Source: Dehalococcoidia bacterium
GTDB lineage: Bacteria > Chloroflexota > Dehalococcoidia > Dehalococcoidales > RBG-16-60-22
Assembly: GCA_041489355.1 (NCBI GenBank)
Contig: JBGPRB010000003.1
Location: 1 to 38,276 of the forward strand
DNA length: 38,276 nucleotides
Reading direction: 5' to 3'
Below the pieces are notes generated by a model. The model worked only from the letters and a program-made list of their open reading frames with translations. It was not told where the DNA came from and made no database searches. Positions 3,806-20,049 of the stretch are shown piece by piece. The stretch's first letter is position 1, and each line of letters begins with the position of its first letter. The translations under genes and the position numbers were made by a program.

Positions 3806-3833
3806 GGGAGGGGGGAAGAGGGGAGGGGCAATA

Positions 3834-4527: not shown

Positions 4528-5688
4528 TTACACATCCAGTCCCAGCAGCATTTTCAGCCTGATTTTAAGCATGTTCCACCGGCCAACTTTGCGGGACATG
4601 ATTTTCATAAAGGTAGTGTCCTTATCTTTCGGAGGGACAAAGGCATTATCTTTTTTATGGAGTCGGCTGGCATGAGATTCACAGGTGACGACGCAATTGC
4701 CGCAGCCGATACACCGGTCGAGGTTGACAGCAGCAACATTATTAACGATGGTACGCGCTTGAAGCTGGCAGCGCTTAACGCAGGTGCCGCAGCCCCTGCA
4801 TAAAGCGGGGTCGACTTCGGCATAGTAATTGGTGGCATAAAGGTCGGCGGGGCGGGGGGACTTTACTACAGCGGAGAGGAGTCCACAGCAGTCGCCGCAG
4901 CAACAGCAGATTGCCTCCGGACGGAGCGAATTTTCCGGCTGGAGGATAAATCCCGCGTGCTGAGCTTTTTCCAGTATATTAAAAGCTTCTTCTTTAGTGA
5001 TATAGCGGGCAATCCCCATCTCAACGTACTGGCGGGCGTGGTCCGTTCCTATCTGTAAACAGGTCTCGCGGATATCAGAGTGGGTGCAGGGCTGTCCCTG
5101 TATGTCTTTGGTCTGGCGGCAGACGCAATTGGCTACCGCGATGGGGCCGGCGGCATTTTCGACAAGCTGACGTACATCATCATAGGTGCTGACCAGGTGC
5201 TTATCCGGGACGGGGATGCTTTTTTCAACCGGGATAGTACGGAGCTGGGGAACTCCCCGCGAGCCGGTCATTTCCGCCCGGGCGAACACCTCGACGTGAT
5301 ATTGATGGAAGGTATCCACGAGGTCTTTAGTGAGCCGGTTTACCTGAAAGTCCACGATGCCGCCGGCGGTAACCCCGGCGTTTTTATAGCGTTTTTCCTT
5401 ATAGCTTGCCCGGTATATCAGGACGGTGCCTTTATAAGCCATGCGGTCGAGAATTATCTGAAGCTGTTCGAGAGATGTCACCAGTCCGCTTTTTTTAGCG
5501 CGACGATAAATGCGTCCGGCAGGTTCCAGCTTGATAGTGGAAAGCTGTGTGGCTATCTGCGCTTCTTCCGGGGTGAACAGGTGCTTCAGCAGGCTAATAT
5601 CGATACCCGATGGAGTGGAGGGATAGCCGACCGGCCCCTTATCAAGATGCTGCTGCAGGTTGCGATATATTTCAGTACCGGTATCCAA
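4528..5688 (-). CDS. 4Fe-4S dicluster domain protein (Cys-rich)
   Basis: CVCR, CCCCGDCC, and two ferredoxin motifs CRGCGTCVKRC and CIGCGNCVVTC; TTG start after GAGGA. Confidence 0.85.
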   Translation of the reverse strand: MDTGTEIYRNLQQHLDKGPVGYPSTPSGIDISLLKHLFTPEEAQIATQLSTIKLEPAGRIYRRAKKSGLVTSLEQLQIILDRMAYKGTVLIYRASYKEKRYKNAGVTAGGIVDFQVNRLTKDLVDTFHQYHVEVFARAEMTGSRGVPQLRTIPVEKSIPVPDKHLVSTYDDVRQLVENAAGPIAVANCVCRQTKDIQGQPCTHSDIRETCLQIGTDHARQYVEMGIARYITKEEAFNILEKAQHAGFILQPENSLRPEAICCCCGDCCGLLSAVVKSPRPADLYATNYYAEVDPALCRGCGTCVKRCQLQARTIVNNVAAVNLDRCIGCGNCVVTCESHASRLHKKDNAFVPPKDKDTTFMKIMSRKVGRWNMLKIRLKMLLGLDV

Positions 5689-5922: not shown

Positions 5923-7692
5923 TTAGTAATAGAAAGCGGTCCTCCTGCCCATCCAGAAGCCGAAGAGGAATATTAGCACAACGCCGACGCCGATGGTCGC
6001 GTATAGCAGCCAGCCGGTGAATTTAAACGGTTGGGCGATAGAGAACTGGCCGGCACCGGTCCAATCGCTTTCGTTCAGGGCGGCATCTACGGCTTTGATT
6101 CTCCAGAACAAGGAGGATTCCTGACCGGCCAGCTTGAGCTCCTCGGCTTCGGTTAAAATATATTCAGATTTACTTAGAGCTGTTTTATCCAGGATGATAG
6201 AACTGGCGGAAAAATCCGAAGCGGAGGCAACCTGCAGATAATAGGAAACAGGAGAGCTATTATCGGTAACACTTGCCCAGGTGAAGGTTATCGGCGTCTT
6301 AGCCTTTACGCCCATCTCCGGCTTTTCCGGTTGCGGTACTTTAGGCGGCACTGATTCCACCGTGAAAGTAATTTTACTGGTATGGGGGCCATCGCTGGCG
6401 GTGATGGTATGGTCTCCGTGTTTACCGGTTGGCACCGGGAAGATATTGCTCATAAAGGTCCCGTTGGCTCCAGCCTTGCCCGTGGCTATTTCCTTATCAT
6501 CATACTTGACGGATATATTGGCATTAGGCGAAAAACCAGTGCCGCCCACCATAAGAGGTTGCCCGACAGCGCCAGTAGTCTGGCTAATGCTGAGGGGGGT
6601 TGTAGAGGGTGCAGGTGCTGGCGCCGGTGCGGGTGTGGGAGCAGGTGCTGGCGTGGGCGTGGGTGTGGGTGATGGGGTGGGTGTTGTGACATTGAAAGTA
6701 ACATTGGCGGTACTGCTCCCAGCGGTAACGTAGATGGCATGGGGACCAGCAGTGCTTTGCGGGATGGTGAGAGTGCTGATAAAGACTCCGCTGGTGCGCG
6801 TAGCCGCATCCCCCGTTTTTGGTGAAATTGTCGTAGTATCATATTTAAAGATAATGGGCGTGCTGACCGGGAAGTTGGTACCGCTAATCGTCACCTCTGT
6901 GCCAGCTGGTCCCGAGGTAGGCAAGAGCGTGTCAATGGTGGCAGCGGCGGTTACGGTGAAAGTGGCAGTGACTGTGCTGGTTCCTACAGTAATAGAAATG
7001 GTATGAGCGCCGGGTGTACTTGAAGGTATGGTGATGGTGCTGATAAAGATGCCACTGCTGCGAGTTGACATGTCTCCTGATTTGGGTGCAATTGCCGTTT
7101 CATCATATTTGAAGAGGATGGGGGAGCTGACGGCGAAGTTAGCACCGCTAATTGTTACGTCAGTGTTAGCCGGACCCGAGGCAGGCGAAAGCGGGTCAAG
7201 GGTGGCGCCGGGGATAACAGTAAATTGGGCATAAGTTCGGATAAGAATCCAATCAGTTTGTGTCGGAGGAGCAGTGTATTCCAGGCTAACATAAACGTAA
7301 TAATTTGTACCTGGCGTTACGGTGCTAGTGCCTATGGTACTGGGCACGGTAAAGGTATATCCAAACTCGCCGGTATCGGAAGTTGCGCCATCTCCTTCGT
7401 CAATTTCTGTACCCTCATGTAATAAAGTATAGTGGGTGATTTGATTATTAATATAATATGTTCCTGTCTGTGGCGGGTCACTGGAAAAGTACAAATTAAC
7501 ATATCTTATGGCACTTTCCGTAGACCTAGTAAAACCAGAGCCGATAACTGAAATTCTGTCGCCGACCTTACCCTGTAACGGATTTAAATTAATGGTTTTT
7601 GCTGCTAGAACCGGTATGGCCGGTATGACCGCCATCAAAAGGGACAGGATAAGTGCCGTCCCGAATATTCTAAAAATTCTTTTGTATTTCAT
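5923..7692 (-). CDS. Membrane-anchored surface protein with IPT/TIG Ig-like repeats, Pro-rich linker and FN3-like domain
   Basis: N-terminal signal peptide (..PAIPVLA|A); repeated L.P.SGP.GT.VTISG.NF units; (TP/AP)n linker; FWRIKAVDAALNESDW; C-terminal TM helix followed by RR. Confidence 0.85.
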   Translation of the reverse strand: MKYKRIFRIFGTALILSLLMAVIPAIPVLAAKTINLNPLQGKVGDRISVIGSGFTRSTESAIRYVNLYFSSDPPQTGTYYINNQITHYTLLHEGTEIDEGDGATSDTGEFGYTFTVPSTIGTSTVTPGTNYYVYVSLEYTAPPTQTDWILIRTYAQFTVIPGATLDPLSPASGPANTDVTISGANFAVSSPILFKYDETAIAPKSGDMSTRSSGIFISTITIPSSTPGAHTISITVGTSTVTATFTVTAAATIDTLLPTSGPAGTEVTISGTNFPVSTPIIFKYDTTTISPKTGDAATRTSGVFISTLTIPQSTAGPHAIYVTAGSSTANVTFNVTTPTPSPTPTPTPAPAPTPAPAPAPAPSTTPLSISQTTGAVGQPLMVGGTGFSPNANISVKYDDKEIATGKAGANGTFMSNIFPVPTGKHGDHTITASDGPHTSKITFTVESVPPKVPQPEKPEMGVKAKTPITFTWASVTDNSSPVSYYLQVASASDFSASSIILDKTALSKSEYILTEAEELKLAGQESSLFWRIKAVDAALNESDWTGAGQFSIAQPFKFTGWLLYATIGVGVVLIFLFGFWMGRRTAFYY

Positions 7693-7811: not shown

Positions 7812-8018
7812 TCACTTTATCAATCTTTTCCTGGCACCGACTTTCGGATTATAGGTGCCGGCGAAGTTATCCAGGGTATCCTTGTTGATGAGCCAGGTGT
7901 TGTGAATCTTGTTCGCCGGCAAATCGCCCTGACGGCATAGCCGTTTTACAGTTTCCGGATGAACCTTAAGGCGGCGACTTGCCTCTATGACATTAAGATA
8001 ATTATCCCATATCGGCAT
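7812..8018 (-). CDS. Excisionase-family (HTH_17) small DNA-binding protein
   Basis: YLNVIEASRRLKVHPETVKRLCRQGDLPANKIHNTWLI matches the MerR-like/Xis HTH pattern. Confidence 0.85.
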   Translation of the reverse strand: MPIWDNYLNVIEASRRLKVHPETVKRLCRQGDLPANKIHNTWLINKDTLDNFAGTYNPKVGARKRLIK

Positions 8019-8046
8019 ACTGTTCTCTTAACAATTTCTTAATAAT

Positions 8047-8092
8047 ATTGCTTTATCAAAGCAATTATAACAATTGTGAGCACAAATGTCAA
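8047..8092 (-). promoter_or_regulatory. Consensus sigma70 promoter of the HTH_17 gene with overlapping inverted repeats
   Basis: TTGACA (8092-8087)-N17-TATAAT (8069-8064) with extended TG; palindromes ATTGCTTT-ATC-AAAGCAAT (8047-8065) and TTGTG-AG-CACAA (8074-8085). Confidence 0.75.
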
Positions 8093-8123
8093 GGGTGTGC
8101 GCCAAAAAAGTGACAAAACTCCA

Positions 8124-8153
8124 TTGACGGTAATAGAACATATGTGCTATTCT
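8124..8153 (+). promoter_or_regulatory. Promoter of the capsid cluster with a LexA (SOS)-like box in the spacer
   Basis: TTGACG (8124-8129)-N18-TATTCT (8148-8153) with extended TG; AATAGAACATATGTGCTATT (8132-8151) is a 20-bp palindrome with one mismatch, containing GAAC-N4-GTGC. Confidence 0.7.
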
Positions 8154-8181
8154 TACTCTGTTTGGTTTTTAGAGGTGCGTT

Positions 8182-8505
8182 ATGGATTTGGTGCATGAGA
8201 TTTGCGGAGATGCCCCGGAAGAGACGAACAAGGAAACCAACCAGAATGAAACAGACTTACCGCCGGAATACTGTCACTATCGAGATGAGGGGTGTGAATA
8301 CGCCCAATCCTGTCTGGCATGTCCGTTCCCACAGTGCCTGTACGATGAGCCAAGGGGAAGGCAGCGCTGGCTTAAAGAATTACGCAACAAGGAGATAAAA
8401 AGACTTTTTACCGCAAACTGGAAAATTAAGGAACTGGCTTTGCTATTCGGTGTCAGCCTGAGGACGATACAGAGGGCGTTGAAGAGTGAGGTAAGTGGGA
8501 AGTAG
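8182..8505 (+). CDS. Cys-rich protein with C-terminal helix-turn-helix (sigma70 region 4-like); probable cluster regulator
   Basis: CHYRDEGCEYAQSCLACPFPQC followed by IKELALLFGVSLRTIQRAL; SD GAGGTG. Confidence 0.75.
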   Translation: MDLVHEICGDAPEETNKETNQNETDLPPEYCHYRDEGCEYAQSCLACPFPQCLYDEPRGRQRWLKELRNKEIKRLFTANWKIKELALLFGVSLRTIQRALKSEVSGK

Positions 8506-8611
8506 TCAGTTGTTAGTTATAAAGGAAACCGGCAGGATGGCAGTCAAAGGAGCATGATAGACAATGAATGAAGCAGTTGTATAACAGCTGGCCCGTCTGG
8601 ACCTGGACAGG

Positions 8612-9958
8612 ATGAAAGGCTATAAAGAACTGCTGGATTTCTATTTCGGACAGCAGTGGGAAGGCCGGGGGAGGCGGAACGAAAGGCGCCTGACATTTAA
8701 CTATGCCAAAGTATTTGTCGAGAAAATTACATCATATTTAATGGGAGGCATCAGCTTTGACGTCGTCCCATCCGGAGATACGGACAAGGAGAGGGAAAGC
8801 GCCAGAAGGGCGGAGGCCGCCATTTATAGAGTCTACGATCAGAGCCACCTGGAGCAACTCGACCTCGAGACGGAAACAGACTGCGCGGTGCTGGGTGACG
8901 GCTGCTATAAAGTTATCTGGGATGCGGTGGAGAAGAGGGTCAGGGTGACCGCTCCCGATGTCCAGGGTATATATGTATGGTGTTCCGGTGATGATACCTC
9001 AAGGATATGGAGGATAGCTTCCCGGTACAGGCTGTCCGCCGAAGAGGTGGAAAATATTTACGGCGTGAAACCCAAGAATAAGACAGCGGTGATAGTGGAG
9101 CTATGGACAGACCATGACTTCGAGCTGTATCTGGATAATGCTTTGCTGGAAGCTAAGCCAAATCCTTACGGATTTATTCCATTTGTCGTTTTCCCCAATC
9201 TTCGCGAACCGAAGAAGTTCTGGGGAGCCTCCGATTTGCCCCAGATAATGGAGAGCCAGCGAGAGCTGAACCGCGCCATGAGCCAGCTATCGCGCATACT
9301 GGAGCTGTCCGGGAACCCCATCGCCGTCCTGGAGAACGTGGAGGAGTCCGAGGATATCGCCATCAGGCCGGGGGCGGTATGGAATATCCCGGAGGATGCC
9401 AAAGCCTATCTGCTCGACCTGCTGCAGGGGGGCGGCGTAAATCTCCATATCAACTACATTGACCTGATATACCGCGCCCTGCACGATTTATCCGAGAGCC
9501 CGAGGTCTGCCTTCGGCGGTATGGAAAGGAACCTGTCCGGGGTAGCCCTTGAGATTGAGCTCCAGCCGTTGCTGCAGAAGGTCAGGAGAAAGAGGATTAT
9601 CAGAACAGCCGCCTATAACCGGCGTAATGAGATGATACTCAGCCTTCTGGAGAAATACGGAGGTGAGAATTTCGGTCCTTCAGCCGAAGGACATACGCGA
9701 GTTATCTGGGGGACGATACTGCCCAGGGACATGGAGACAAGAGTGAACAGCGAACAGGTCATGGTGCAGAACGGAATACACTCCCGGAGAACGGCCATGG
9801 GGGAGGTGGGGGTGAGGGACCCCGATTACGAATTCCAGCGGTGGCTGGAGGAGAGGGAGTCCATTCTTAAGATGAACAGAGAGCTTAACGCTAAATCCGC
9901 CAGGAGCGGAGCGAGAGAGAGTGCTTTACCGTACCGGGCGGAAGGCGTTGAGGAGTAA
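8612..9958 (+). CDS. Phage portal protein (SPP1 gp6-like); an upstream in-frame ATG at 8564 is cut off by TAA at 8582
   Basis: DFY.G.QW, LTFNYAKVFVEK..SYL, NPYGFIPFVVFPN, SGVAL motifs; about 450 aa; position before scaffold and capsid. Confidence 0.85.
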   Translation: MKGYKELLDFYFGQQWEGRGRRNERRLTFNYAKVFVEKITSYLMGGISFDVVPSGDTDKERESARRAEAAIYRVYDQSHLEQLDLETETDCAVLGDGCYKVIWDAVEKRVRVTAPDVQGIYVWCSGDDTSRIWRIASRYRLSAEEVENIYGVKPKNKTAVIVELWTDHDFELYLDNALLEAKPNPYGFIPFVVFPNLREPKKFWGASDLPQIMESQRELNRAMSQLSRILELSGNPIAVLENVEESEDIAIRPGAVWNIPEDAKAYLLDLLQGGGVNLHINYIDLIYRALHDLSESPRSAFGGMERNLSGVALEIELQPLLQKVRRKRIIRTAAYNRRNEMILSLLEKYGGENFGPSAEGHTRVIWGTILPRDMETRVNSEQVMVQNGIHSRRTAMGEVGVRDPDYEFQRWLEERESILKMNRELNAKSARSGARESALPYRAEGVEE

Positions 9959-9979
9959 TGAGCAGGAGGCAAGACTTTT

Positions 9980-10468
9980 ATGGAAAATGAACAGGAAAAG
10001 GTCGATGAGGTGGAGACTAACGGCAGCGAAATTGACAGTCTTAAGCTTGAGAAAGAGTCACTTGCACGTGAGCTTAAGTCCAGAGACGACGCAATCGCCA
10101 AACTGGAGCAGGCGCTGACCGGTAAGGACAGCGAGGTGACGGCCATGAAGCAGGCTCTGGATGATACCACGCAGAAGCTGAAAGATATGGGCGAGGTTCT
10201 ACCCAAAGCGGTCGCCGCCTATAAGGAAATCGTGGCCCAGGCGAACCCCGGCATCCTGGCCGAGATGATAAACGGGGACACAATCGAAGGAATAAACGAG
10301 TCCCTGAAGAATGCCCGGGCTCTCGTGGAAAGGGTCAGGCAGGAAGTGGGGGCGGAAGCTGCCAGGGTAAGGGTGCCGGGTGGCGCCCCGCAGAGGACAC
10401 CGCTGGACATGTCGGCCCTATCGCCACGGGAAAAGATTCAGTACGCCCTGGGGGGTTCGGCGTCCTGA
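9980..10468 (+). CDS. Probable capsid scaffolding protein
   Basis: Acidic coiled coil between portal and capsid genes; short C-terminal helix LSPREKIQYAL; SD AGGAGG. Confidence 0.65.
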   Translation: MENEQEKVDEVETNGSEIDSLKLEKESLARELKSRDDAIAKLEQALTGKDSEVTAMKQALDDTTQKLKDMGEVLPKAVAAYKEIVAQANPGILAEMINGDTIEGINESLKNARALVERVRQEVGAEAARVRVPGGAPQRTPLDMSALSPREKIQYALGGSAS

Positions 10469-10570
10469 TGAGGGGTGGTGGCGGGTGTGAGGTTACTGCG
10501 TCCACCTGAGGCGGACTGGCAGTAATCATCTGTAGAATCAGAAAAATATTATAAGTGAGGTAAAAGAAAA

Positions 10571-11491
10571 ATGGCTTTAACTTTAGCAGAAGCATCCAAA
10601 CTATCTAACGATATACTGATGCAGGGAGTGGTGGAGACCATCGTGAAGGACTCGCCGGTTCTCCAGAAGCTGCCCTTTGTCGAAATCGTGGGCAACGGTC
10701 TGACTTATAACCGGGAAAACACCCTGCCCAGTATCGATTTCTATGACGTGGGCGATACATGGACAGAATCGACGCCGACTTTCACACAGGTAACGGCCAA
10801 CCTGAAAATCATGGGCGGCGATGCCGATGTGGACAACTTCCTCAAGGCTACCCGCAACAATGTCCAGGACCTGGTGGCGGCCGTCATCGAGCTGAAGGCC
10901 AAGGCGCTCCAGCAAAAATTCGAGGACACCTTTATCTACGGCGATAGTTCCGTCAACGCCAAGCAGTATGACGGGCTGAGGAAGCTGATAAATACCGGCG
11001 TGGCGGGCAGCCAGGTGATAGCGATGGGGGCTACCGGCGCCACTTTGACCCTGGCCAAGCTGGACGAGCTGATTGACGCCGTAAGGGGCGGCAAGCCCGA
11101 TATGCTGCTGATGAGCCGGCGTTCCCGGCGCAAGATGAATGCCTTGGTCAGGGCGGCCGGTGGCATGATTGAGACCAACCAGGATAAATGGGGCAACTTC
11201 ATCCAGCTCTGGGACGGTGTACCCATCGGCGTGAACGACTGGATTCTGGACACGCATGTCCTCAGCGGCAGCGTGGAAACGGCTACCACCGGCGGCACCT
11301 GTTCCACCATATACGCTGTGCAGCTGGGGGAGGGGGCCCTCTGCGGCCTGACCAGCCCCGGCTACCTGCAGGCTGAGCCCATCGGCTCACTGGAGACCAA
11401 GGACGCCTCCAGGACCAGGGTGAAGTGGTATGTCTCCCTGGCGCTGTTCAGCTCAATCAAGGCAGCGGCCCTTATCGGCGTCCAGGACTAA
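10571..11491 (+). CDS. Phage major capsid protein (HK97 fold, epsilon15 gp7/BPP-1-like)
   Basis: ALTLAEA.KL...GVVE.I...SP.L..LPF..I.GN...YNRE..LP, DVDNF, FIYGD.....YDGL motifs; 306 aa with no delta domain. Confidence 0.88.
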   Translation: MALTLAEASKLSNDILMQGVVETIVKDSPVLQKLPFVEIVGNGLTYNRENTLPSIDFYDVGDTWTESTPTFTQVTANLKIMGGDADVDNFLKATRNNVQDLVAAVIELKAKALQQKFEDTFIYGDSSVNAKQYDGLRKLINTGVAGSQVIAMGATGATLTLAKLDELIDAVRGGKPDMLLMSRRSRRKMNALVRAAGGMIETNQDKWGNFIQLWDGVPIGVNDWILDTHVLSGSVETATTGGTCSTIYAVQLGEGALCGLTSPGYLQAEPIGSLETKDASRTRVKWYVSLALFSSIKAAALIGVQD

Positions 11492-11512
11492 TACTTGACA
11501 TAAAATATGATT

Positions 11513-11541
11513 AGGGGGTCTCGATTCTATCGGGGCCCCCT
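11513..11541 (+). terminator. Stem-loop after the capsid gene (attenuator or mRNA stabiliser)
   Basis: AGGGGGTCTCGAT-TCT-ATCGGGGCCCCCT, 13-bp stem with two G-U pairs and no long U tract. Confidence 0.5.
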
Positions 11542-11554
11542 TGAGGAGGAAGAA

Positions 11555-12088
11555 ATGGTTCACCAAGAGAATTCAACACGGATGGAAAGAAGAGAATCAG
11601 CGAGATGGCTATGCCGGTTCCAGCTCAGAAAGTACCGGGAGAACATTGACCTGTACCGGGGCCGCGAAGACAACTTTCACCGTCTTTTTAAGCCTTACGA
11701 GGTTATCGAGGGGGAGGGGAACTGCTTGCTTAACACGGGCATCGACGAGATGTGGGACCTGATTGCGGGCGACTCGGCCAATCACTTTAACAACGCCAGC
11801 TCTCAAATCGGCGTCGGCGATAGCAACACGGCGGCCAGTCCGTCCCAGACGGACTTACAGGCAGCCACCAATAAGACCTACAAGAGTATGGATACCGGCT
11901 ATCCCACATCCACCAGCCAGAAGGCAACCTTCAAGGCCAGCTTTGGTTCCGATGACGCCAATTACGCCTGGAACGAGTGGGTGGTCAAGCAGGCGACCAG
12001 CGCCAAGTGCCTGAACCGCAAGGTGGAAAGCCTCGGCACGAAAAGCGGCGGCACCTGGACGCTGGAAGTAAGCATCACTCTATCGTGA
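11555..12088 (+). CDS. Putative virion structural protein
   Basis: N.LLNTG..., IGVGDSNTAASPSQTDL, F..SFGSDDANYAWNE, LNRKV...GTK resemble phage tail/baseplate-associated proteins; ATG 11555 after GAGGAGG. Confidence 0.6.
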   Translation: MVHQENSTRMERRESARWLCRFQLRKYRENIDLYRGREDNFHRLFKPYEVIEGEGNCLLNTGIDEMWDLIAGDSANHFNNASSQIGVGDSNTAASPSQTDLQAATNKTYKSMDTGYPTSTSQKATFKASFGSDDANYAWNEWVVKQATSAKCLNRKVESLGTKSGGTWTLEVSITLS

Positions 12089-12130
12089 TGATTCATTACG
12101 GGGATTCATTACGAGAGATTGGAGACGGCA

Positions 12131-14101
12131 GTGGCGGAGATAGAAAAGGTAACCGATCCGACTAAAATGGTCACCGACCCCGTAGTGCTTGACGTGTTAG
12201 CGAAGCAGAAGATAGATAAAGATTACGTCCTTCTGCTGCAGGATTACGGCAAGCGTATCAAAGGTGTCAGCTCACCCTATGCCAGGTTTTACCGTGACCT
12301 GAAGTCCGGAAAGGGGCTGATGGTTGTCTCCGGACTGCCGATGGTTGACGCCTACGGGTTCGGGCATGAGTTGCAGTGGACGGATAAGAACGGCGTCATC
12401 GAGAACGGCAACAATATCTTCCACAGCGCTATCGATAAAGGTGCGGTACGCCTGATTGCCCTCAGCGACCAGCCAAACGGAGCGAAAAAGGACGACGAGG
12501 TAAACTTTCATCCGCAGCTATTCATTAGTGGTGTGGAGATTCTGCCTTTGTCGGATATGCCCAAGTTACTGGAGACCGACTCCATCAATGAGAACTACCA
12601 TTACAATGTCCTTGAATGGGACTTTGGAGTATGTCTGCGCAGGGTCAGACTAATTGAGGGACGTTTTCTCGGTTCATGGGTGTTCTTGACCAACCCTAAA
12701 GGCGATGTCCTTATCAAGTATAATCAGTCTGGCAAACTTAAGTTGCGACTCCAGTATGCTAGAGACGAAGATACAGAATTTGTACCGAAGGAGTTTTTTT
12801 ACGAGGCCGAGGCATATCCCCTCACTATCTCGGATAACCTTACATTCTATCCTGACGCTGACCCTGAGACTTCTTCTGTTGATGGGAGAGTACAGCAAGC
12901 CTCCACAAATATTGCCTGGGGCACTCTTGTGGGTGCTGCGGGTTCCCAGGCTTACCCTTCTGAGGCTTCCAGCGATATACGATTTTTAGCTGGCTCGACA
13001 ACTGACCTCTGGGACCGTATTTATCGTCTCATTACTCTTTTTGATACCAGCAACCTGCCCGATACTGCCAGCATATCTGCCGCTACACTTTCCCTGCATG
13101 GTAAGGTGGGTAAAACGGACGGATGTTTAGCAACTCCGACTGTTAATGTATATTCGTCTAATCCTGCCAACAATAATAACTTGGTAGCAGCAGACTACGC
13201 TACTCTAGGCACAACCGCCTTTTGTGATTCTCCAATTGCGTATGCCGATTGGGTTGAGGGTGGAACTGCGAATATTTACTACAATGACTTTGCACTCAAT
13301 GCGTCAGGTATTGCGGCCATAAGCACAATTGGAGTGTCCAAGTTTGGTTTCCGCTTCAACTATGACGCAACCAGTACCGCACCTAATTGGGTATCAGTAG
13401 GTTCAACCCTCATATCAGTTTATACGACAGAGAAAGGTGCAGGGTTCCAGCCCAAACTGGTGGTGACTTATAGCTCTACCATCGAGAAAATCTCATCGGA
13501 AACCGGCTCGGGGGCTGAGGTGATAACATCGGGCAATCCCATTGTCGTGACGAGCGGCGCGGAGGCAGGTTCCGGGTTAGAATCTCTAGGAAGCCGTGAC
13601 CTGGGGCAAATCGAAACAGGTTCCGGGTTAGAATCTTTAGGAAGCCGTGATCTGGGGCAAATAGAGACAGGTTCCGGGTTAGAATCTCTGGAAAGCCGTG
13701 ATCTGGGGCAAACCGAGGCAGGTTCCGGGTTAGAATCTCTAGGAAGCCGTGACCTGGGGCAAATCGAAACAGGTTCCGGGTTAGAATCTGTCGGGAGCCG
13801 TGATTTTGGGCAAACCGAAGCAGGGTCAGGGCTTGATATTTCCTCTCTTTTGGCGGCATTTACAGGATATGACATTGGTTCAGGCATGGAAGCAGCTCTT
13901 AAAATTGCTGCTTTCATCTCAGGCGATGGGGGGGTCGGCTCAGAACTCAGCTGGATGCTGAAAGAAGCCCTGGCGGGTGACAGAGGCGGTGGTTACGATG
14001 CCCTGAAGGCCCTGATAAAGGCAGCGGGTTCGGGCTCTGATATGAGATTAACCATCCACCAGGGCCAGGTGGCCAGACCTAACAAGGAGGTAGATTTATG
14101 A
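12131..14101 (+). CDS. Large mosaic virion protein (fibre/adhesin-like) with central DNRLRE-like domain and C-terminal 17-aa repeats
   Basis: GTG 12131 after GGAG (ORF open from 12119); LFDTSNLPDTASISAATLSL...PKLVVTY; repeats GSGLESLGSRDLGQIET; ATGA overlap with next gene. Confidence 0.6.
   Translation: MAEIEKVTDPTKMVTDPVVLDVLAKQKIDKDYVLLLQDYGKRIKGVSSPYARFYRDLKSGKGLMVVSGLPMVDAYGFGHELQWTDKNGVIENGNNIFHSAIDKGAVRLIALSDQPNGAKKDDEVNFHPQLFISGVEILPLSDMPKLLETDSINENYHYNVLEWDFGVCLRRVRLIEGRFLGSWVFLTNPKGDVLIKYNQSGKLKLRLQYARDEDTEFVPKEFFYEAEAYPLTISDNLTFYPDADPETSSVDGRVQQASTNIAWGTLVGAAGSQAYPSEASSDIRFLAGSTTDLWDRIYRLITLFDTSNLPDTASISAATLSLHGKVGKTDGCLATPTVNVYSSNPANNNNLVAADYATLGTTAFCDSPIAYADWVEGGTANIYYNDFALNASGIAAISTIGVSKFGFRFNYDATSTAPNWVSVGSTLISVYTTEKGAGFQPKLVVTYSSTIEKISSETGSGAEVITSGNPIVVTSGAEAGSGLESLGSRDLGQIETGSGLESLGSRDLGQIETGSGLESLESRDLGQTEAGSGLESLGSRDLGQIETGSGLESVGSRDFGQTEAGSGLDISSLLAAFTGYDIGSGMEAALKIAAFISGDGGVGSELSWMLKEALAGDRGGGYDALKALIKAAGSGSDMRLTIHQGQVARPNKEVDL
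13566..13834 (+). repeat. In-frame 51-bp tandem repeat, 5 full copies plus a degenerate sixth
   Basis: Units start at 13566, 13617, 13668, 13719, 13770, 13821; units 1 and 4 are identical. Confidence 0.95.
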
Positions 14102-14730
14102 ATTTAACCGAGATGATATCCCTGGTCAGGAGTGACCTGCACGATGAAGCCAGCGGCAATTATCGCTGGTCGGACGCCGAGCTCACCAGGCACATCAACC
14201 GGGCGGTGGCGGAGCTTTCCGAGGGCCTGCCCCTGCCGGCTAAAGCTACCCTGCCCACGGCGGCCGGTTCGAGAGAACTCGATATCTCTGGCCTATCTGA
14301 CCGGATAATGGTTGCCGCCGTGGAGTATCCGGTGGGGTCCAGCCCGCCAGATTATCAGCAGTTTTCCATCTGGGGCGACATGCTGACTATCGTGAGCGGC
14401 AGCCTGCCCGAAGGCTCTAACTGCTATGTTTATTACGGCGTCCGGCATACCCTGGATGACGAGGGTTCGACAATCCCGGTTAAGTACGAGGATTTGGTCG
14501 CCAGCGGGGCCTGCGGTTATGCCGCCATCGAGTGGGCAGCCTATGCTATCAACCGGGTCAATGTGGGGGGTACGGTAACGCCCAGGGAGTTCCTCGACTG
14601 GGGAAACCAGAAACTCAAAGATTTCCGGCAGGAGTTGAGACGGCTGGGGAGGCGAAATCGTATCAGGATAAGCTCTCTTTACAGCCTCTATAATCACGCC
14701 GCCTCCACGTCAATTGACTACGGCCCTTAA
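14098..14730 (+). CDS. Probable head-tail adaptor / head-completion protein
   Basis: MNL.EM...VR..L.D......RWSDAEL..HINRA N-terminus typical of phage adaptor proteins. Confidence 0.65.
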   Translation: MNLTEMISLVRSDLHDEASGNYRWSDAELTRHINRAVAELSEGLPLPAKATLPTAAGSRELDISGLSDRIMVAAVEYPVGSSPPDYQQFSIWGDMLTIVSGSLPEGSNCYVYYGVRHTLDDEGSTIPVKYEDLVASGACGYAAIEWAAYAINRVNVGGTVTPREFLDWGNQKLKDFRQELRRLGRRNRIRISSLYSLYNHAASTSIDYGP

Positions 14731-14754
14731 TTTACCGCGATACGGAGTAAGAAG

Positions 14755-16758
14755 ATGCGTACATTGACGTCGACATTACTGGCCGCCCAGAAGCAGGAAG
14801 CTTCGATTCCCTGTGCTAAGATTGAAGCCGTAAGCAAGATTACCGGCGTGGTCAGGTACGATTGGTCCAGACTTTATGATGGCTCCGAACCTGACTACTT
14901 TCATGCCCTGACGATGCCCGGCGATGGCTCCCTGGTCAGGGCCAGGATAACACTGCCCGCCGATTCCAGGAAGCTCTACCGCCAGCGGGTGGCTAACCCC
15001 GGCCCGTGGAGCGACTTCAGCCAGTGGACCTATACCAGCCAGTATAATGCCGTCGTGGCGGCGGCGGCTTCCCTGGGGGCTGAAGTCTCGATATTCTGGA
15101 TAAACACCAGCCGGGAAATCAGGCGCATCAAAAGCACGGACTACGGTGTGAACTGGGGCAGCCCCGAGCTTATCGATTATTCACCGACAACCGCTATTTA
15201 CGGCCTGGCGGCCGCTTATAAGCCCGGCGGCAACCTGGCAATCTTTTTCGCTGACCAGTCGACCCTGTATGTCAAGAAGAATATCAGCGGGGCGTGGCAG
15301 ACGAAGGCGGCCTGGGATAAGGCGACCGGTAGTCTATCGGGTATCGCCGGCGCCTACGATGGCGACTGGAATCTGCTGGTCACCGGCAAAGATACGGCGG
15401 GAAACTACAAGCTATGGAGCCTGGTATATGGGGACGGCGGGGATGTCGCCATCGGTAGCTGGTCAGTCCTGAAAGAGCTTGCCTCGGCCCCTTCCGGCGG
15501 CGATTTCGAGTATAAACAGCCGTTCCTCGATAGGACGGACGTTTATCGCTGTTTCTTTATCGAGAAGTTCGCCGGCACCGAGGCTTACAGCCGTCCTTTC
15601 CGGTCTCAGGCTGTTCCCGGTGCGCATTTTGTCGATGGCCTGTGGCGGGAGCCGGCGCCGTTCAATCTATCTTCGGATTATGGTCTGGCCATGGCTCATT
15701 ACGGCGATTATGGCTGGTTTTCCAGTCCTGATAGCGTCTGGAGAGCTTCACTGACCGCCAGCAGTCTTGACCTGACGGCGGACGTCATCAGCGTCAGGCA
15801 GGAACTGGGTAAGACTTCGGGCGGTTTAACCGTGGAGTTGAGGAATGATGACGGGAGGTATGCATCTCCGGGGCAGGGTGACCTGGCGGCCATGGACATC
15901 GGCTGCCAGCTGGAGTTCAGTCCCGGCTGCATAACTGCTAATGGCAGCGAGTACAGTAGCGGACTGAGCTTTTACCTCGAATCTCTGGAGCACACCAGCG
16001 CCGGCGGCAGGGCCAGTCTAATTCTTCACGCCAGGGACGGCTGGGGGGCGCTGGGTGACTGGAAAGCCAGACACCAGTTCCGCTGGAACAAGACCTCTGA
16101 CGACATGTGCGTAAAGGATATTATCGCGGTTATTCTGGCCAGGGTGGGTCTGAAGCTGGAGGTAAAATCACAGTCATCGACGATAACGGGGTTTTACCCG
16201 GATTTCACGTTAAATCCAGATGACAACGGCAGGGCGGTGATAATTAAGCTGCTGTCTTTCGTTCCCGATGTATTATTTATCGAAGGTAATAAGGCTTATA
16301 TCGTCAACCCGCTGTCTTCCGATGGTACGGAATACAGTTATGGCGTCGAGCACCAGATTAAAGAGGGCAGGTACGGGCGGGGAGCCTTGGGAATTAACAG
16401 GGTACAGGTCGAGGGGTATGATACCGGCACCAGCCATTTAATACTGGTGAATAGCTTCGCCTGGAGTGAGATAGACCGACTTTACGACCGGCTGTACCAG
16501 ATTGAGGATAGGAATTTAAATAGCGTGGACGAGGCCCAGCAGCGCGGGCAGGCTCATTTAAGGCAGATGGAGATAGAAGCGACTGAGGGCATGATTATAG
16601 TTCCGGTGAACTGCGGGCAGCAGCTATATGACGTCATCGATGTGACCGATACGCGGGCCGGACTTGATGCGGTAAAGAAAAGAGTCCTGGGACTGGTCCT
16701 GGTTTATAATCCTCAGCGCGGCGAATACTTCCAGCGTCTGGAGCTGGGAGGGGTATAG
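14755..16758 (+). CDS. Putative tail tip / baseplate hub-like virion protein
   Basis: Beta-rich 667 aa with a BNR-like STDYGVNW motif; C-terminal INRVQVEG...EA..R....L......G...VP.N...QLYDVI.V resembles hub/Tal folds (inference). Confidence 0.5.
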   Translation: MRTLTSTLLAAQKQEASIPCAKIEAVSKITGVVRYDWSRLYDGSEPDYFHALTMPGDGSLVRARITLPADSRKLYRQRVANPGPWSDFSQWTYTSQYNAVVAAAASLGAEVSIFWINTSREIRRIKSTDYGVNWGSPELIDYSPTTAIYGLAAAYKPGGNLAIFFADQSTLYVKKNISGAWQTKAAWDKATGSLSGIAGAYDGDWNLLVTGKDTAGNYKLWSLVYGDGGDVAIGSWSVLKELASAPSGGDFEYKQPFLDRTDVYRCFFIEKFAGTEAYSRPFRSQAVPGAHFVDGLWREPAPFNLSSDYGLAMAHYGDYGWFSSPDSVWRASLTASSLDLTADVISVRQELGKTSGGLTVELRNDDGRYASPGQGDLAAMDIGCQLEFSPGCITANGSEYSSGLSFYLESLEHTSAGGRASLILHARDGWGALGDWKARHQFRWNKTSDDMCVKDIIAVILARVGLKLEVKSQSSTITGFYPDFTLNPDDNGRAVIIKLLSFVPDVLFIEGNKAYIVNPLSSDGTEYSYGVEHQIKEGRYGRGALGINRVQVEGYDTGTSHLILVNSFAWSEIDRLYDRLYQIEDRNLNSVDEAQQRGQAHLRQMEIEATEGMIIVPVNCGQQLYDVIDVTDTRAGLDAVKKRVLGLVLVYNPQRGEYFQRLELGGV

Positions 16759-16783
16759 GCATTGTCTGAAGGGGGCACGGGAA

Positions 16784-16996
16784 ATGAGGTTGAAGAAAGC
16801 GGAGCTAAGGAGTTTTAATTCCGGCAATTACACGGCTACTGTCCGACTTGCCAGCAGCTATAAGGTCTACCTGGAGGATGTAGCTGTGGCCAGGAATCTG
16901 ACGTCAGCGGAAATGATTACAGGACGGAAGGTTGCCGTGATATTTTTTGATGAGAATAGCCCCAAGGAAGCGGTGGTGGTGGCGGTCTATACTTAA
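16784..16996 (+). CDS. Small protein, possible OB-fold spike/tip component
   Basis: ATVRL......LEDVAV......GRKVAVIFFDENSPKEAVVVAVY resembles gp5/gpV N-terminal OB folds; last gene of the cluster. Confidence 0.5.
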   Translation: MRLKKAELRSFNSGNYTATVRLASSYKVYLEDVAVARNLTSAEMITGRKVAVIFFDENSPKEAVVVAVYT

Positions 16997-17021: not shown

Positions 17022-18095
17022 TTACCATCGTGCCATGGGATGGCGCTGGCGGGCGCAACCCGGCGGGTAGGTTTTATCGGGGGCACGGTAGGACGCTGGC
17101 TCTTCTGCCTCATCCGGTTTTTCGGCTTCAGTTACCGATTTCCTGGCGTGGATTACCAATTTTTCGGCTACGGGCACCAGTTTTTCAACCTTGTATGCCG
17201 GCTTTTCCGTTGCCGTTTTATATAAAGCCCGGTGGAACGGGGGTATCTTTGCCTCGTCCGGTTTTTCGGCTAGAGGCGCCGGCTTTTCTGTTGCCGGCGG
17301 CGTTTCTTTTATTAAAGTTATTGTTTCCTGCTTATGGCCTGCCTTAGTCATGTTCTCCATGAGGGCCGCCAGGACGCGATTTTGTTCGGCGGCGCCTTTC
17401 TTTAACTCATGAGATGCCTCGGCTAGACTCTGGACGGCACTGGTATGGCTGGCCAGGTGCTGGGCATATTCCGAAATGGCGGCAGAGAACTTACCCAGGG
17501 CCTGTTCCGTGGAGTCCATTTTCTTTTCCGTGGCTTCCATTTTGCGTGTCAGCACCCGGTTAGTACGTTTTTCTTCGTTAATGACCGGAGAAAATATCCC
17601 CCGGTGTATCAAGTTACTGCCCCGGCTTATTTCACCGCCATACAGGAAGAGAATGAGCAGGACCAGGGCGATAATAACGAATATCAGACCCTGCTTGCTC
17701 TGGAAGAACAGCAGGGGAAGACCGAGAAAAGGAATCTGGCTGCCGACGGTACCACGGATGTCCATCGGCCTGATGGTGAAAGGTTCTTCACCGGTATTAT
17801 CACCCTGGGTGCGGAAGCCCAATGATGGTGTGGTATTAACCTTTATCACCCTGTGGGCCACCACCGGCGGATAGTTGTAATATTCCCGAACCATCGGGGG
17901 GACATTATAGACGATGATATCGCCTACCCTGACATCACCGGGGTTCACGGGTTTAATCATAAGGAGGCCGCCGGAATGCAGTGTGGGTTCCATACTGGAG
18001 CCGAATATGGGAATGAAAGGCATCGTCCCTCTTACCGTGAGGAATCCCACGATGCAGGCTACAGTAACGAATACAAGTCCGATGGCGCGTTTCAT
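17022..18095 (-). CDS. Signal peptidase I, ER/SipW type, with long C-terminal coiled-coil and EKP-repeat tail
   Basis: GSSMEPT (Ser), VGDIIVY, VAHRVI (His), FRTQGDN; N-terminal and post-catalytic TM helices. Confidence 0.9.
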   Translation of the reverse strand: MKRAIGLVFVTVACIVGFLTVRGTMPFIPIFGSSMEPTLHSGGLLMIKPVNPGDVRVGDIIVYNVPPMVREYYNYPPVVAHRVIKVNTTPSLGFRTQGDNTGEEPFTIRPMDIRGTVGSQIPFLGLPLLFFQSKQGLIFVIIALVLLILFLYGGEISRGSNLIHRGIFSPVINEEKRTNRVLTRKMEATEKKMDSTEQALGKFSAAISEYAQHLASHTSAVQSLAEASHELKKGAAEQNRVLAALMENMTKAGHKQETITLIKETPPATEKPAPLAEKPDEAKIPPFHRALYKTATEKPAYKVEKLVPVAEKLVIHARKSVTEAEKPDEAEEPASYRAPDKTYPPGCARQRHPMARW

Positions 18096-18104
18096 GTGCT
18101 TATT

Positions 18105-19151
18105 TTACCTCTGCGTAACCTCGCAGTAAAATTCAGGGACTATACTCCATCCGGCTCCCCAATCGTCGGTGTTGTCAGAAACCAGCCGGTAGCTACCGCC
18201 AGCCAGTTCCATGGTGTATTTTTTAGCGGAACCGCCTTCAATATTAAAGGATATCACGCCATTTTCAATACTCAACATCTGGTAATCGGGAGTCTTTTTG
18301 GCTTCCAACGAGTTAGCCATATAGAGTTCCATGTTAAGGTAGTTATACGCCTTGAGCAGGTCGGCGGTATTGGTCATGTAAATTCTCACCTGAAGGTCAC
18401 CGGTATAGTCGGTGTGGGGGGTGATATCATACAGGTTACCCTGCGGTAATTCGCCCTGGGTGGTGGTATGTTTATAATTGACTTCCACATAAACCTGGGT
18501 GCAGAGAGCCGGCTTATTTTTATTATGACCTTCGATAGTAACGCCAGCCTGCAAATCATTAATGTCTTCCTGGGTCCAGGATTTGTCGGTAGCGGGGTTA
18601 TTGGCGCACTGCCAGGACTCAGTAACGAAGGGGGTATCAGATAGTGTTATGTTCGGGCCTTCGTAGACCTGGTCGTTCGTTTTGATAGCGGCCATGGCAG
18701 TGACGTCGTAATCACCGCCGGAAGCGAACCGGAAGTAAACGGTAATATTTTCTATTGTATCTTCGCTGCCCGCTCCCGTAAAATTACTCAAGTTATACAG
18801 GTCTCTTTGCCAGCCGCCAGAATCTTCGGTAGATACATAGGTGTCACCATCGTCAGCGGGCTGGTCGTCCACCTTATCCCAGTGTTCATCCGATGCGGGG
18901 TACTGAGCGGACAACTCGGTATCATCACCGGGAGCGTTAGGCACAAGAATTTCGGAATTGTACTCGCCGCTGGGCAGAAGGCTGTTCCAGTTCGGCTGGT
19001 TGGCCGATGGCTCGTAGGTTGTCCAGCCGTCATCAGCAAGGGTGGCATTCAGTGTTGTCACCGAGTTATTGGAAAAGGTGTAGGCGAAAGTGCCGGTGGT
19101 CAACACCAGGGCGAGTATTAATATTCCGATAAAGATTAATTTTTTCTTCAT
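18105..19151 (-). CDS. Secreted TasA/CalY-like protein with SipW-type signal peptide and an inserted domain
   Basis: MKKKLIF...LVLTTGTFA|YTF signal; paralogous to 19273..20049 (YTGDL, NG, PE..CEV.QR); ATG at 19151 (ORF open from 19178). Confidence 0.65.
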   Translation of the reverse strand: MKKKLIFIGILILALVLTTGTFAYTFSNNSVTTLNATLADDGWTTYEPSANQPNWNSLLPSGEYNSEILVPNAPGDDTELSAQYPASDEHWDKVDDQPADDGDTYVSTEDSGGWQRDLYNLSNFTGAGSEDTIENITVYFRFASGGDYDVTAMAAIKTNDQVYEGPNITLSDTPFVTESWQCANNPATDKSWTQEDINDLQAGVTIEGHNKNKPALCTQVYVEVNYKHTTTQGELPQGNLYDITPHTDYTGDLQVRIYMTNTADLLKAYNYLNMELYMANSLEAKKTPDYQMLSIENGVISFNIEGGSAKKYTMELAGGSYRLVSDNTDDWGAGWSIVPEFYCEVTQR

Positions 19152-19272
19152 TTTTTTATGTTCTTCAGCGCTTATCAAGTAATGGGATGATGTCTTTTAA
19201 GGCCGGTAGGGTAGAGGAGTATGAGTGTCAGTCTACCCTACCGCGTTGTATTTATACTATACTACCAGGTTT

Positions 19273-20049
19273 TTACCTCTGGGCGACTTCGCAGAAGAGC
19301 TCCGGAGAGCCGCTGCCTGTCCAGGTTCCCGGCCAGACATGGGTGATAAAGAAACCTCTCTTGACTCTTACAGAACTGTTGTCAGCCGCGCCGCCGGGGT
19401 ACATGCTGACGGAGCCGTTGTCCAGCGTGAGCATGACCCAGTCAGTAGCCGCGTCTGCTACACTGTCTTCATTAATATCCAGGATGCTGCCGTCGGCGGC
19501 ATTCATGGTGAGTTGCAGGGAAAGCGCGCGATAGCGCTTTACCAGCTCGTCGGCGTTGCCGAGTGAGACCGTAACTACCAGGTCGCCGGTGTAGCCGGAG
19601 GTGGCGGTGTTAATGTTGAATATCGGTGTGCCACCGATGGCGGCAGTGATAGCGCCCTTGTAGAAGCCCCAGCCGGACCAGCTGAGCGAGCCGACGCCGG
19701 CGGTGTCGACGCTAACATCGGCAAAGTTCGACTCGGCGATGGTGCCGGTCAGAGTTGTGCTGGCGTTGATGAAACCGAAGGCGAATACGCCGCCGGTAGC
19801 AGCCAGCGCCAGGAGCAGAGCGCCGATCAGGTAAGCTCCCTTGCCTCTGGAAACGGCGAAGGTCAGCTTATCATCGTCATTGAGCACGGTATCATGTTCA
19901 GCGTTCGCCTTGACTCTGGAGCCGTTCAGCTTTGCCTGGGCTTTATCCGGGATGCCAAACTCAGCTTTGAACTGCTCACGAGCCGCTCTAACTGTCTGCC
20001 CGGCTAGATTAGTTATTTCAAACTGGTCACTATATTTTATTTCAACCAT
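19273..20049 (-). CDS. TasA-like secreted protein with N-terminal ubiquitin-like domain before an internal SipW-type signal peptide
   Basis: aa 1-66 G.TV......FGIP....A.LNG......D..L..DD.L.F; aa 67-90 RGK...LLLALAATGGVFA|FGF; C-terminus PELFCEVAQR. Confidence 0.65.
   Translation of the reverse strand: MVEIKYSDQFEITNLAGQTVRAAREQFKAEFGIPDKAQAKLNGSRVKANAEHDTVLNDDDKLTFAVSRGKGAYLIGALLLALAATGGVFAFGFINASTTLTGTIAESNFADVSVDTAGVGSLSWSGWGFYKGAITAAIGGTPIFNINTATSGYTGDLVVTVSLGNADELVKRYRALSLQLTMNAADGSILDINEDSVADAATDWVMLTLDNGSVSMYPGGAADNSSVRVKRGFFITHVWPGTWTGSGSPELFCEVAQR

Follow-up and report, generated by a model that had tools for sequence, protein, structure and literature searches.

A candidate gene-transfer-agent-like particle system of phage origin in the class Dehalococcoidia

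Does a set of phage head and tail genes that lies directly between cellular genes belong to a phage, or to the host that carries it? The question is raised by a 38,276-nt stretch of DNA from a Dehalococcoidia bacterium, which is an entire contig (G000:C3) of a metagenome-assembled genome (MAG; 2.77 Mb, 75% complete) and is referred to here as the window. Nine tightly packed open reading frames (ORFs) were called on its plus strand at 8182-16996, among them genes for a portal and a major capsid protein (MCP). A preliminary description had taken this cluster for a domesticated, vertically inherited phage module, and that claim is supported by synteny, by congruence of gene trees, by the ratio of nonsynonymous to synonymous substitution rates (dN/dS) and by a terminase large subunit (TerL) encoded outside the cluster. 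We consider it probable that the genes encode an anciently domesticated, vertically inherited, SOS-inducible, DNA-packaging particle system of the class Dehalococcoidia that resembles gene transfer agents (GTAs). That the system is a functional domesticated one is likely; that its particles genuinely transfer genes is a tentative proposal.

The system is best pictured as two operons, a packaging operon with a small ORF, a gene for a putative terminase small subunit (TerS) and TerL, and a head/tail operon with a candidate activator carrying a helix-turn-helix (HTH) domain, portal, scaffold, MCP, an optional fibre cassette, adaptor, hub and a 70-aa tip candidate. DNA damage would lead to cleavage of the repressor LexA and hence to derepression of both operons. 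Procapsids would then form on the portal with the scaffold, TerS and TerL would load DNA, and the adaptor, hub and fibres would close the heads into podovirus-like particles, whose cargo, like that of a gene transfer agent, would most likely be host DNA. Packaging of DNA is to be expected because TerL, TerS, portal and scaffold are intact. Such a particle could not propagate as a virus, because replication, integration and recognisable lysis genes are lacking, cellular genes are interposed between its parts, and the parts are dispersed in other orders.

Head, tail and packaging genes

ORF calling and family scans agree with the gene set proposed earlier. The portal protein (8612-9958; all genes in this and the next two paragraphs are on the plus strand) matches SPP1_portal (1.9e-23) and phrog_64 (2e-37). 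The MCP (10571-11491) belongs to the epsilon15 gp7 type, with a match to NF045672 (MCP_gp7_epsi_15) that spans residues 4-300 of 306 and scores 216.6 bits against a curated cut-off of 75, and a match to phrog_212 (1.1e-74). Between these two lies a scaffold-like coiled-coil protein (9980-10468), named from its position and composition and from a weak match to the scaffold family phrog_233 (8e-3); the annotated scaffold of phage Rowa occupies the same position. The SU10-type head-to-tail adaptor (14098-14730; SU10_adaptor PF24175, 9.7e-10, 39.6 bits against a cut-off of 27) overlaps the preceding gene by 4 nt at 14098-14101, the ATGA overlap reported earlier. The operon opens with a 107-aa protein (8182-8505) with a Cys-rich N-terminus and a C-terminal HTH (HTH_23 at 6.7e-4, under the cut-off; phrog_836, ‘late transcriptional activator’, at 3.1e-6), which is a candidate activator and stands directly after TerL in two other orders.

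The 667-aa protein encoded at 14755-16758 was identified as a tail hub from an AlphaFold (AF2) model of good quality (pLDDT 89.9, pTM 0.85), in which an N-terminal beta-rich, beta-propeller-like domain is followed by a C-terminal hub domain of the gp27/Mu gp44/VgrG kind. Foldseek matches in the Protein Data Bank (PDB) include 7aef_q (3.5e-17), 1wru (3.1e-14) and the pyocin R2 hub, and the C-terminal domain resembles baseplate hubs that range from the spikes of extracellular contractile injection systems (eCIS/PVC) to Mu gp44, T4 gp27, pyocin R2, VgrG and XkdQ. Matches in BFVD are named ‘Tail protein’, ‘Phage protein D’ and ‘XkdQ’, and a hub profile run against PDB sequences returned nothing meaningful. 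The last gene of the operon encodes a 70-aa conserved protein (16784-16996) that has no family match in Pfam, PHROG or NCBIfam and is a candidate tip or plug by its position; it is kept beside the hub in other orders, with dN/dS of 0.04-0.13.

The slot between the MCP and the adaptor is variable and was found in three states. In the window it holds a 193-aa virion-associated protein (11507-12088; phrog_23653, a PHROG of unknown function, at 6.9e-46; no Pfam family), whose look-alikes in the ESM Atlas are viral hypothetical proteins, and a 660-aa protein (12119-14101) with no family match, lower GC and 5.2 copies of a 51-nt (17-aa) tandem repeat at 13566-13831. Elsewhere it holds an unrelated 154-aa protein with a Laminin_G_3 ‘virion structural protein’, or it is empty. 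Across 80 Dehalococcoidales MAG loci, the 193-aa protein is present in 37, the 154-aa protein replaces it in 26, and the 660-aa protein occurs in 24 at 29-54% identity; compact versions of the module lack the 193-aa protein. Variation of this kind is expected for exchangeable receptor-binding or decoration proteins, and the 660-aa protein may be a fibre or receptor-binding protein. A link between it and SipW-associated proteins, which had appeared in single-linkage clustering, was not confirmed (BLASTP E = 0.88).

The cluster had been described as co-oriented throughout, which holds for 8182-16996 and fails for its first ‘regulator’, a 68-aa DNA-binding protein of the HTH_17/excisionase family (7812-8018; HTH_17 at 1.4e-10, TIGR01764 at 3.9e-8) that lies on the minus strand. 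This candidate regulator is present in 30 of the 80 loci, with 67-100% identity and dN/dS of 0-0.07. It forms a divergent leftward unit with the gene for a 589-aa surface protein (5923-7692, minus strand) that has a signal peptide, Ig/IPT-like repeats, a Pro/Thr linker and a C-terminal membrane anchor, with weak Ig matches only. The surface protein gene is found in 43 of the 80 loci and, in most loci of the order, stands between TerL and the regulators; it evolves fast (dN/dS 0.17-0.31) and is often tandemly duplicated. It is not beside the module in the loci of other orders (L258-L265), and its tie to the module within the order appears to be one of association.

The cluster had also been described as lacking packaging genes, which is true of the window and not of the genome, where a TerS/TerL operon lies on contig C160. 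The TerL gene (C160:5561-6946) is at the end of this 7-kb contig. The window opens with an MscL gene, and in the same-genus genome G001 TerL stands 1.6 kb upstream of that gene; C160 therefore most probably abuts the 5′ end of the window, and by this synteny the operon is probably about 11 kb upstream of the cluster. TerL lies 4.7-11 kb from the MCP gene on the same strand in 13 genomes with both on one contig, and 19-24 kb away on the opposite strand in two genomes. Among the genes that separate the two operons is, only in this genus, one for a 386-aa protein with two C-terminal 4Fe-4S motifs (4528-5688, minus strand), which might be a reductive-dehalogenase-like enzyme.

The assignment of TerL comes from several lines of evidence. 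Terminase_6C found the 461-aa ORF above its cut-off in four of five good genomes (7.8e-10), phrog_5909 also matches, and homology to the annotated TerL of Bacillus phages vB_BboS-125 (5e-40) and BCD7 (3e-33), the latter with a homologous portal gene adjacent, covers 94% of the protein. In 14 aligned sequences the Walker A-like ARQGGKNE, the Walker B-like LLLE(I/V)DE and YGTTW are invariant, as are the acidic residues of DLAGE, VDA(T/S)G and GHDDF, which we take to be ATPase and nuclease motifs by analogy with T4 gp17. TerL thus appears divergent but intact. Terminase_6N gave no match in the genome itself and one among 61 relatives, on an unrelated contig; TerL_ATPase, Terminase_3 and TerL_nuclease each gave none in five genomes. 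The ATPase domain had no Pfam match, and a TerL profile against PDB sequences gave only marginal matches to TerL nucleases (E about 0.5). TerL was found in 43 of 61 relatives in the order (23 of 25 high-quality genomes) at 63-82% identity to the query from G026, and its family comprises at least 3,957 protein clusters, which among the 120 listed are all unnamed or ‘hypothetical protein’. Two ORFs lie upstream of TerL, one of 53 aa and one of 126 aa, and the longer of them is the TerS candidate. In the complete genome G079, from another order, contig C1 carries four full-length TerL-like copies (434136, 1027622, 2248152 and 2896760; 57-58% identity to the query) and four fragments, with only one MCP and one portal gene.

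What surrounds the cluster is cellular, as proposed, with MscL, a short-chain dehydrogenase/reductase (SDR) and a Fer4 protein on one side and an S26 peptidase-like protein, two-component systems and GatA on the other. Its composition is likewise similar to that of housekeeping genes, the GC content of third codon positions (GC3) being 0.77 in the MCP and 0.66 in the portal gene, against 0.72 in GatA and 0.70 in tryptophanyl-tRNA synthetase (TrpRS), at a genome GC of 0.507. The combination that marks a temperate prophage, an integrase, att sites and contiguous replication and lysis modules, is missing. ORF and family scans found no integrase, replication or lysis gene in the window, nor among the frequent neighbouring ORF clusters that were scanned at the 80 MAG loci; a tRNA scan found no tRNA, and the only direct repeats bracketing the cluster are 14-nt matches, a length often reached by chance. 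The arrangement is the one known from GTAs, namely chromosomal phage-like structural genes without those for replication, integration or self-propagation. The absence of an endolysin might be due to the fact that cultured Dehalococcoides have no peptidoglycan.

Conservation, dispersal and inheritance with the host

The gene order surface protein(s), HTH_17, HTH, portal, scaffold, MCP, variable slot, adaptor, hub, 70-aa protein is the same in ten of ten fetched 20-kb loci and across the 80 Dehalococcoidales MAG loci, in keeping with the conserved synteny expected of a domesticated module. The MCP gene is present in all 80, scaffold in 79, portal in 77, adaptor in 68, the 107-aa HTH gene in 65, hub in 63 and the 70-aa gene in 55, and the shortfall is partly expected because many contigs are short and end within the locus. 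A flank of two response regulators and a histidine kinase (RR/RR/HK) with a FAD gene, or one with an S26-peptidase gene, recurs in 23-29 of the 80; other flanks include enolase, GAPDH, PurL, a CetZ-like tubulin and a radical-SAM enzyme, with no integrase seen. Next to the cluster in the window (17022-20049, minus strand), a homologue of S26 (SipW-like) signal peptidases is extended at its C-terminus by a long stretch, and after it come two secreted paralogues of 357 and 258 aa that both end in E(F/L)(Y/F)CEV(T/A)QR; the trio has no family match, and its position beside the capsid cluster is conserved in many genomes.

The MCP was found in 43 of 61 genomes of the order (31 of 36 from other genera of the family and 11 of 24 from other families), mostly in single copy; identity is 98% within the genus, 79-93% at family level and 69-83% for the order as a whole. 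At the level of the class it is present in 172 of 301 genomes (133 of 222 of high quality; 113 of 192 genera), again mostly as one copy and at 55-75% identity in other orders; G302, a genome flagged as unpublished, is counted among the 172. A sample of 301 genomes from the phylum gave 34 matches, 15 of them from other classes, where identities are 46-55% and occurrences are concentrated in a few families. A search of species-representative genomes returned 319 stretches, and the 80 that were kept are all from MAGs labelled Dehalococcoidia or Chloroflexota but one, a ‘delta proteobacterium’. Among cultured phages the best MCP match is 42% identical (38-42%) and portal matches are 22-26% identical.

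Complete genomes from other orders keep the parts of the system but have them far from one another. In the complete genome G086, MCP, adaptor, hub and 70-aa gene are at 1.61 Mb, with portal and TerL at 1.78 Mb, 170 kb apart; in G065 the MCP block and a TerL-portal block are 47 kb apart, in G114 the portal is 112 kb away, and in G127 the arrangement is inverted, at a distance of 10 kb. TerS, TerL, HTH and portal are contiguous in G248 and G342, an order that is probably ancestral and has its parallel in phage BCD7. A gene set that is scattered and still kept argues for a regulon maintained by the host, since a selfish prophage would not survive such scattering. In the same two genomes, 2.4-5.6 kb are inserted between the portal and scaffold/MCP genes (3903-9540 in L265 of G342, 7170-9567 in L264 of G248), and a second SOS-like box stands just upstream of the scaffold gene.

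Loss of the module was also seen. The MCP-less genome G002 and the complete genome G045 carry a remnant in which the first 167-273 portal codons are fused into the C-terminal part of the hub and followed by the 70-aa gene. This is loss by internal deletion at the same locus; TerL is still present in both, and G002 keeps the same two-component flank.

Selection on the module is comparable to that on cellular genes, dN/dS (Nei-Gojobori method, NG86) being 0.05-0.22 for module genes and 0.02-0.24 for flanking cellular genes. In a same-genus pair, where dS is unsaturated (0.10-0.37), the ratio is 0.056 for the MCP, 0.10 for the portal, 0.07 for the HTH gene and 0.22 for the scaffold, and four upstream cellular genes on a shared contig give 0.075-0.19 at similar dS. 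More distant pairs give 0.05-0.08 (MCP), 0.08-0.10 (portal), 0.10-0.15 (hub) and 0.10-0.22 (adaptor). Values of 0.05-0.22 exclude neutral decay. The dS of the MCP gene against relatives at the level of G026 (L013 and L025) is 0.58-0.68, roughly half the 1.0-2.0 of the module and flank genes around it, and its GC3 of 0.77 is the maximum of the window; together these suggest strong codon selection from high expression, or gene conversion.

Congruence with the host was assessed against the TrpRS-like synthetase of the window (34548-35531). Quick maximum-likelihood trees of portal plus MCP and of TrpRS, with 16 genomes, share six of 13 bipartitions, against a mean of 0.15 and a maximum of three in 2000 label shuffles, and the deepest split is common to both trees with support of 97 and 98. 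Mean pairwise protein distances are 0.18 for MCP, 0.24 for portal, 0.25 for TerL and 0.27 for TrpRS, and Mantel tests against TrpRS gave r = 0.39 for MCP (p = 0.002, n = 19) and r = 0.65 for portal (p = 0.0002, n = 16). These distance tests used rows with at least 90% coverage and genomes with the orthologous TrpRS type. Two types of the synthetase occur in the order, about 70-83% and about 40-44% identical to that of the window, and some genomes have both; TrpRS is an imperfect host marker because the second type (about 42%) is present in many genomes, and only 19 genomes with the orthologous type were therefore used. Measured by this one marker, vertical inheritance is accompanied by purifying selection across the host clade, as in GTAs.

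These results bear most heavily on the possibility that the cluster is what an ordinary prophage left behind, or belongs to a temperate phage that is widespread in Dehalococcoidia, with its conservation reflecting recent spread of one phage and not descent with the host. All parts of the system are of phage origin, 173 contigs with this MCP are listed in the viral database IMG/VR, and outside the class MCP, portal and TerL occur in conventional phage order. Yet the 80 IMG/VR contigs that were kept are all fragments of 2-16 kb, and neither the window nor the scanned neighbours of the 80 loci hold an integrase, an att repeat, a tRNA, replication genes or lysis genes. The same chromosomal neighbourhood recurs across genera, trees and distances agree with the host gene, dS of the module equals that of its flanks in the same-genus pair, and the range of dN/dS leaves no room for neutral decay. 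Genes up to 170 kb apart are nevertheless kept, and the nearest cultured-phage MCP is only 42% identical. The prophage explanation is largely refuted by this evidence and is, in our judgement, barely tenable.

A second possibility is that the system supplies capsids to a specific resident element, for example the dehalogenase genomic islands, or that it exports or stores DNA under stress. Intact TerS/TerL and portal genes imply DNA packaging and the system is host-fixed, as this would require, and Dehalococcoidia are rich in integrative elements according to the account in bioRxiv 10.64898/2026.09.15.751708. On the other hand, neither a pac or cos site nor a partner element was identified, the genomes that carry the module differ greatly in content across the whole class, and the IME1 elements are proposed, in the same account, to make filamentous particles of their own. 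We regard this as decidedly unlikely.

LexA-type boxes and other features of the window

A GTA-like system would be expected to answer to a host regulator, and the 163-nt intergenic region between the divergent HTH_17 and HTH genes suggests a candidate. The leftward unit of HTH_17 and surface protein has a predicted sigma-70 promoter (8064-8092, minus strand) that matches the consensus at 12 of 12 positions (TTGACA-17-TATAAT, with extended TG) and has a conserved -35. Abutting its -10 is the palindrome TTGCTTT-N3-AAAGCAA (8048-8064), a candidate operator whose alignment columns are conserved to 80% or more in 27 loci. The head/tail operon is preceded by a promoter-like site (8124-8153, plus strand; TTGACG-18-TATTCT) with a conserved -35 TTGAC. 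A LexA-type (SOS) box, AGAACATATGTGCT, at 8135-8148 overlaps the spacer and -10 of this rightward promoter.

The box is conserved: every one of the 63 loci with 200 nt or more of sequence before the HTH gene has GAAC-N4-GTNC in that stretch (63/63), and one control window contained the motif. Similar boxes are found at genes of the SOS response in the same genome: AGAACAGGTGTTCT lies 32 nt upstream of lexA (LexA_DNA_bind plus S24 domains), AAACAGATGTGCT in the promoter of recA, and AGAACAATTGTTCT 30 nt upstream of a gene for a Y-family (imuB-like) polymerase. The 12-mer GAACATATGTGC of the head operon box recurs identically upstream of the operon of small ORF, TerS and TerL on C160, and a box precedes TerS/TerL in 22 of 24 loci, which correspond to 16 of at most 18 distinct genomes, some loci being duplicates of one genome; six further loci were dropped as their upstream sequence was too short. 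The predicted sites thus have what marks a member of the LexA regulon: a box that overlaps the promoter, is conserved across orthologous promoters and is common to lexA and recA of the same genome. LexA of Dehalococcoides is reportedly a protein that uses GAAC-N4-GTTC. The same motif is given as the SOS box of B. subtilis (PMC4234289). Both operons are probably under LexA control, judging from these sites. A listing of sequencing runs gave 20 of DNA and none of RNA.

SOS control would also fit a killer particle of the PBSX or tailocin kind, that is, an SOS-induced defective phage kept to kill or inhibit competitors, in which packaged DNA is incidental and undelivered. The box parallels the induction of PBSX, the evidence of domestication applies equally, and the variable fibre cassette, the fast-evolving surface protein and the XkdQ/pyocin-hub fold suit strain-specific targeting. 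However, in Pfam and PHROG scans neither the cluster ORFs nor those that often neighbour them matched a sheath, tube, tape measure or any other killing device. Only the hub fold is shared with PBSX-like particles and R-type tailocins, which are built on a contractile sheath and tube. TerL, TerS, portal, scaffold and MCP are under strong purifying selection and would be needless for DNA-free killing, and the compact versions in other orders do without the variable cassette. A killer particle is therefore unlikely; as a rival, PBSX-like particles stand beside GTAs as the closest functional analogues.

Several observations weigh against the GTA-like interpretation. Concerning the boxes, the common form GAAC-N4-GTGC departs from a perfect palindrome and its assignment to LexA is by sequence similarity; HTH_17 or the candidate HTH activator could be the regulator that binds it instead. 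Genome-wide, the relaxed motif occurs at about chance frequency (62 sites against about 42 expected), and AGAAC-N4-GTNCT has nine sites on one strand; because of this frequency the argument depends on where the boxes lie and on their conservation. Of 27 boxes in 12 loci that belong to other orders and classes, six are within 250 nt upstream of a module gene, an enrichment that is modest and suggestive only, as a rough chance estimate is 1.7. Concerning inheritance, seven of the 13 splits are unshared and the host phylogeny is that of a single marker, TrpRS, with which the Mantel correlation of TerL is weak (r = 0.22, p = 0.13, n = 13). The MCP is absent from 129 of the 301 class genomes, including all 17 of family f50 and all seven of family f52, and the module is therefore dispensable. 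Concerning the particle, no gene for lysis or release, tail tube or needle was identified at the locus, the AF2 model of TerL from the 14-sequence alignment is too poor to use (pLDDT 46.7), and the matches behind the TerS candidate, an ORF with a basic N-terminus, are weak (phrog_1889 at 1.6e-4; NF040601 at 1.2e-3). We also know of no solved virion in which a gp27-like hub is docked directly on an SU10-type adaptor.

Two further features of the window stand apart from the capsid cluster. Directly 3′ of the amidase (GatA-like) gene is an Abi_C gene (30915-31760; GC 0.377, GC3 0.23), which looks like a recent foreign insertion because its GC is far from the genome value of 0.507, and it is a possible defence gene. 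A 24-nt purine-rich element (AGGGAGGGGGGAAAAGGGGAG-like) occurs in four copies, at 568-591, 1088-1111, 2257-2280 and 3805-3828, at least two of which sit just past gene ends.

Relation to known particle systems and significance

Known GTAs include RcGTA of Rhodobacter, BaGTA, VSH-1 of Brachyspira, Dd1 and VTA, and those known are siphovirus- or myovirus-like. The system described here resembles them in being a chromosomal set of phage structural genes without replication or integration functions, inherited vertically under purifying selection at more than one locus, with TerS and TerL kept and with control through host regulators, as predicted here from the boxes. It differs in that no sequence relationship was detected: where RcGTA has an HK97-type capsid, prohead protease, tail tube and tape measure, the matches here are to an epsilon15 gp7-type MCP and an SU10-type adaptor, and the cluster ORFs gave no Pfam, PHROG or NCBIfam match to a sheath, tube, tape measure or prohead protease. 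The predicted particle is podovirus-like with a hub, the host belongs to Chloroflexota, and a LexA-type box stands directly on both operons. A GTA packages random pieces of host DNA that are too small to encode the particle and delivers them to recipient cells, as particles of the present system would do if it is one.

PBSX and PBSZ of Bacillus are likewise domesticated, they are SOS-inducible and package host DNA, as is predicted for the system here, and the hub found here is related in fold to XkdQ; PBSX differs in being contractile and confined to a narrow species group, in contrast to the class-wide system without sheath or tube described here. The epsilon15- and SU10-like podoviruses share the MCP, adaptor and portal families (NF045672, SU10_adaptor and SPP1_portal, all above cut-offs), and phage BCD7 has homologues of TerL and portal side by side. 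Identities to these phages are only 24-42%, and the present system has no nozzle or needle homologue, no surrounding phage genome and, as its distal part, a gp27-like hub with a beta-propeller. The cf-PICI satellites also encode their own portal, MCP, adaptors and TerS; they are mobile, with integrase and replication genes and without TerL, whereas the system here has TerL, no integrase and a fixed position.

To our knowledge, independent GTA families number no more than a handful, and none is in Chloroflexota. No published description of the module was found in the literature on GTAs, capsids and prophages of Dehalococcoidia and Chloroflexota, supplements being outside the search. The passages on Dehalococcoides viruses in bioRxiv 10.64898/2026.09.15.751708 concern a different, filamentous element and carry no mention of GTAs, and the supplementary tables of tailed proviruses in that preprint could bear on the novelty of the module.

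It is conceivable, as a speculative extension, that the system is a true GTA that predates the radiation of Dehalococcoidia, the first in Chloroflexota and the first of podovirus type, with LexA boxes on separate operons, and that it serves as a main route of gene exchange, for instance of reductive dehalogenase islands. The class is abundant in sediments, aquifers and peat, and the key organohalide respirers of bioremediation belong to it. The interpretation of viromes would be affected, since at least 173 fragments of the module are listed as viral contigs in IMG/VR. The proposal is directly testable, as the full set is present in one genus for which seven complete single-contig genomes exist. 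If it is true, a host-fixed, damage-inducible, DNA-packaging particle retained throughout the history of the class would be a concrete candidate mechanism of gene exchange for the streamlined genomes of Dehalococcoidia.

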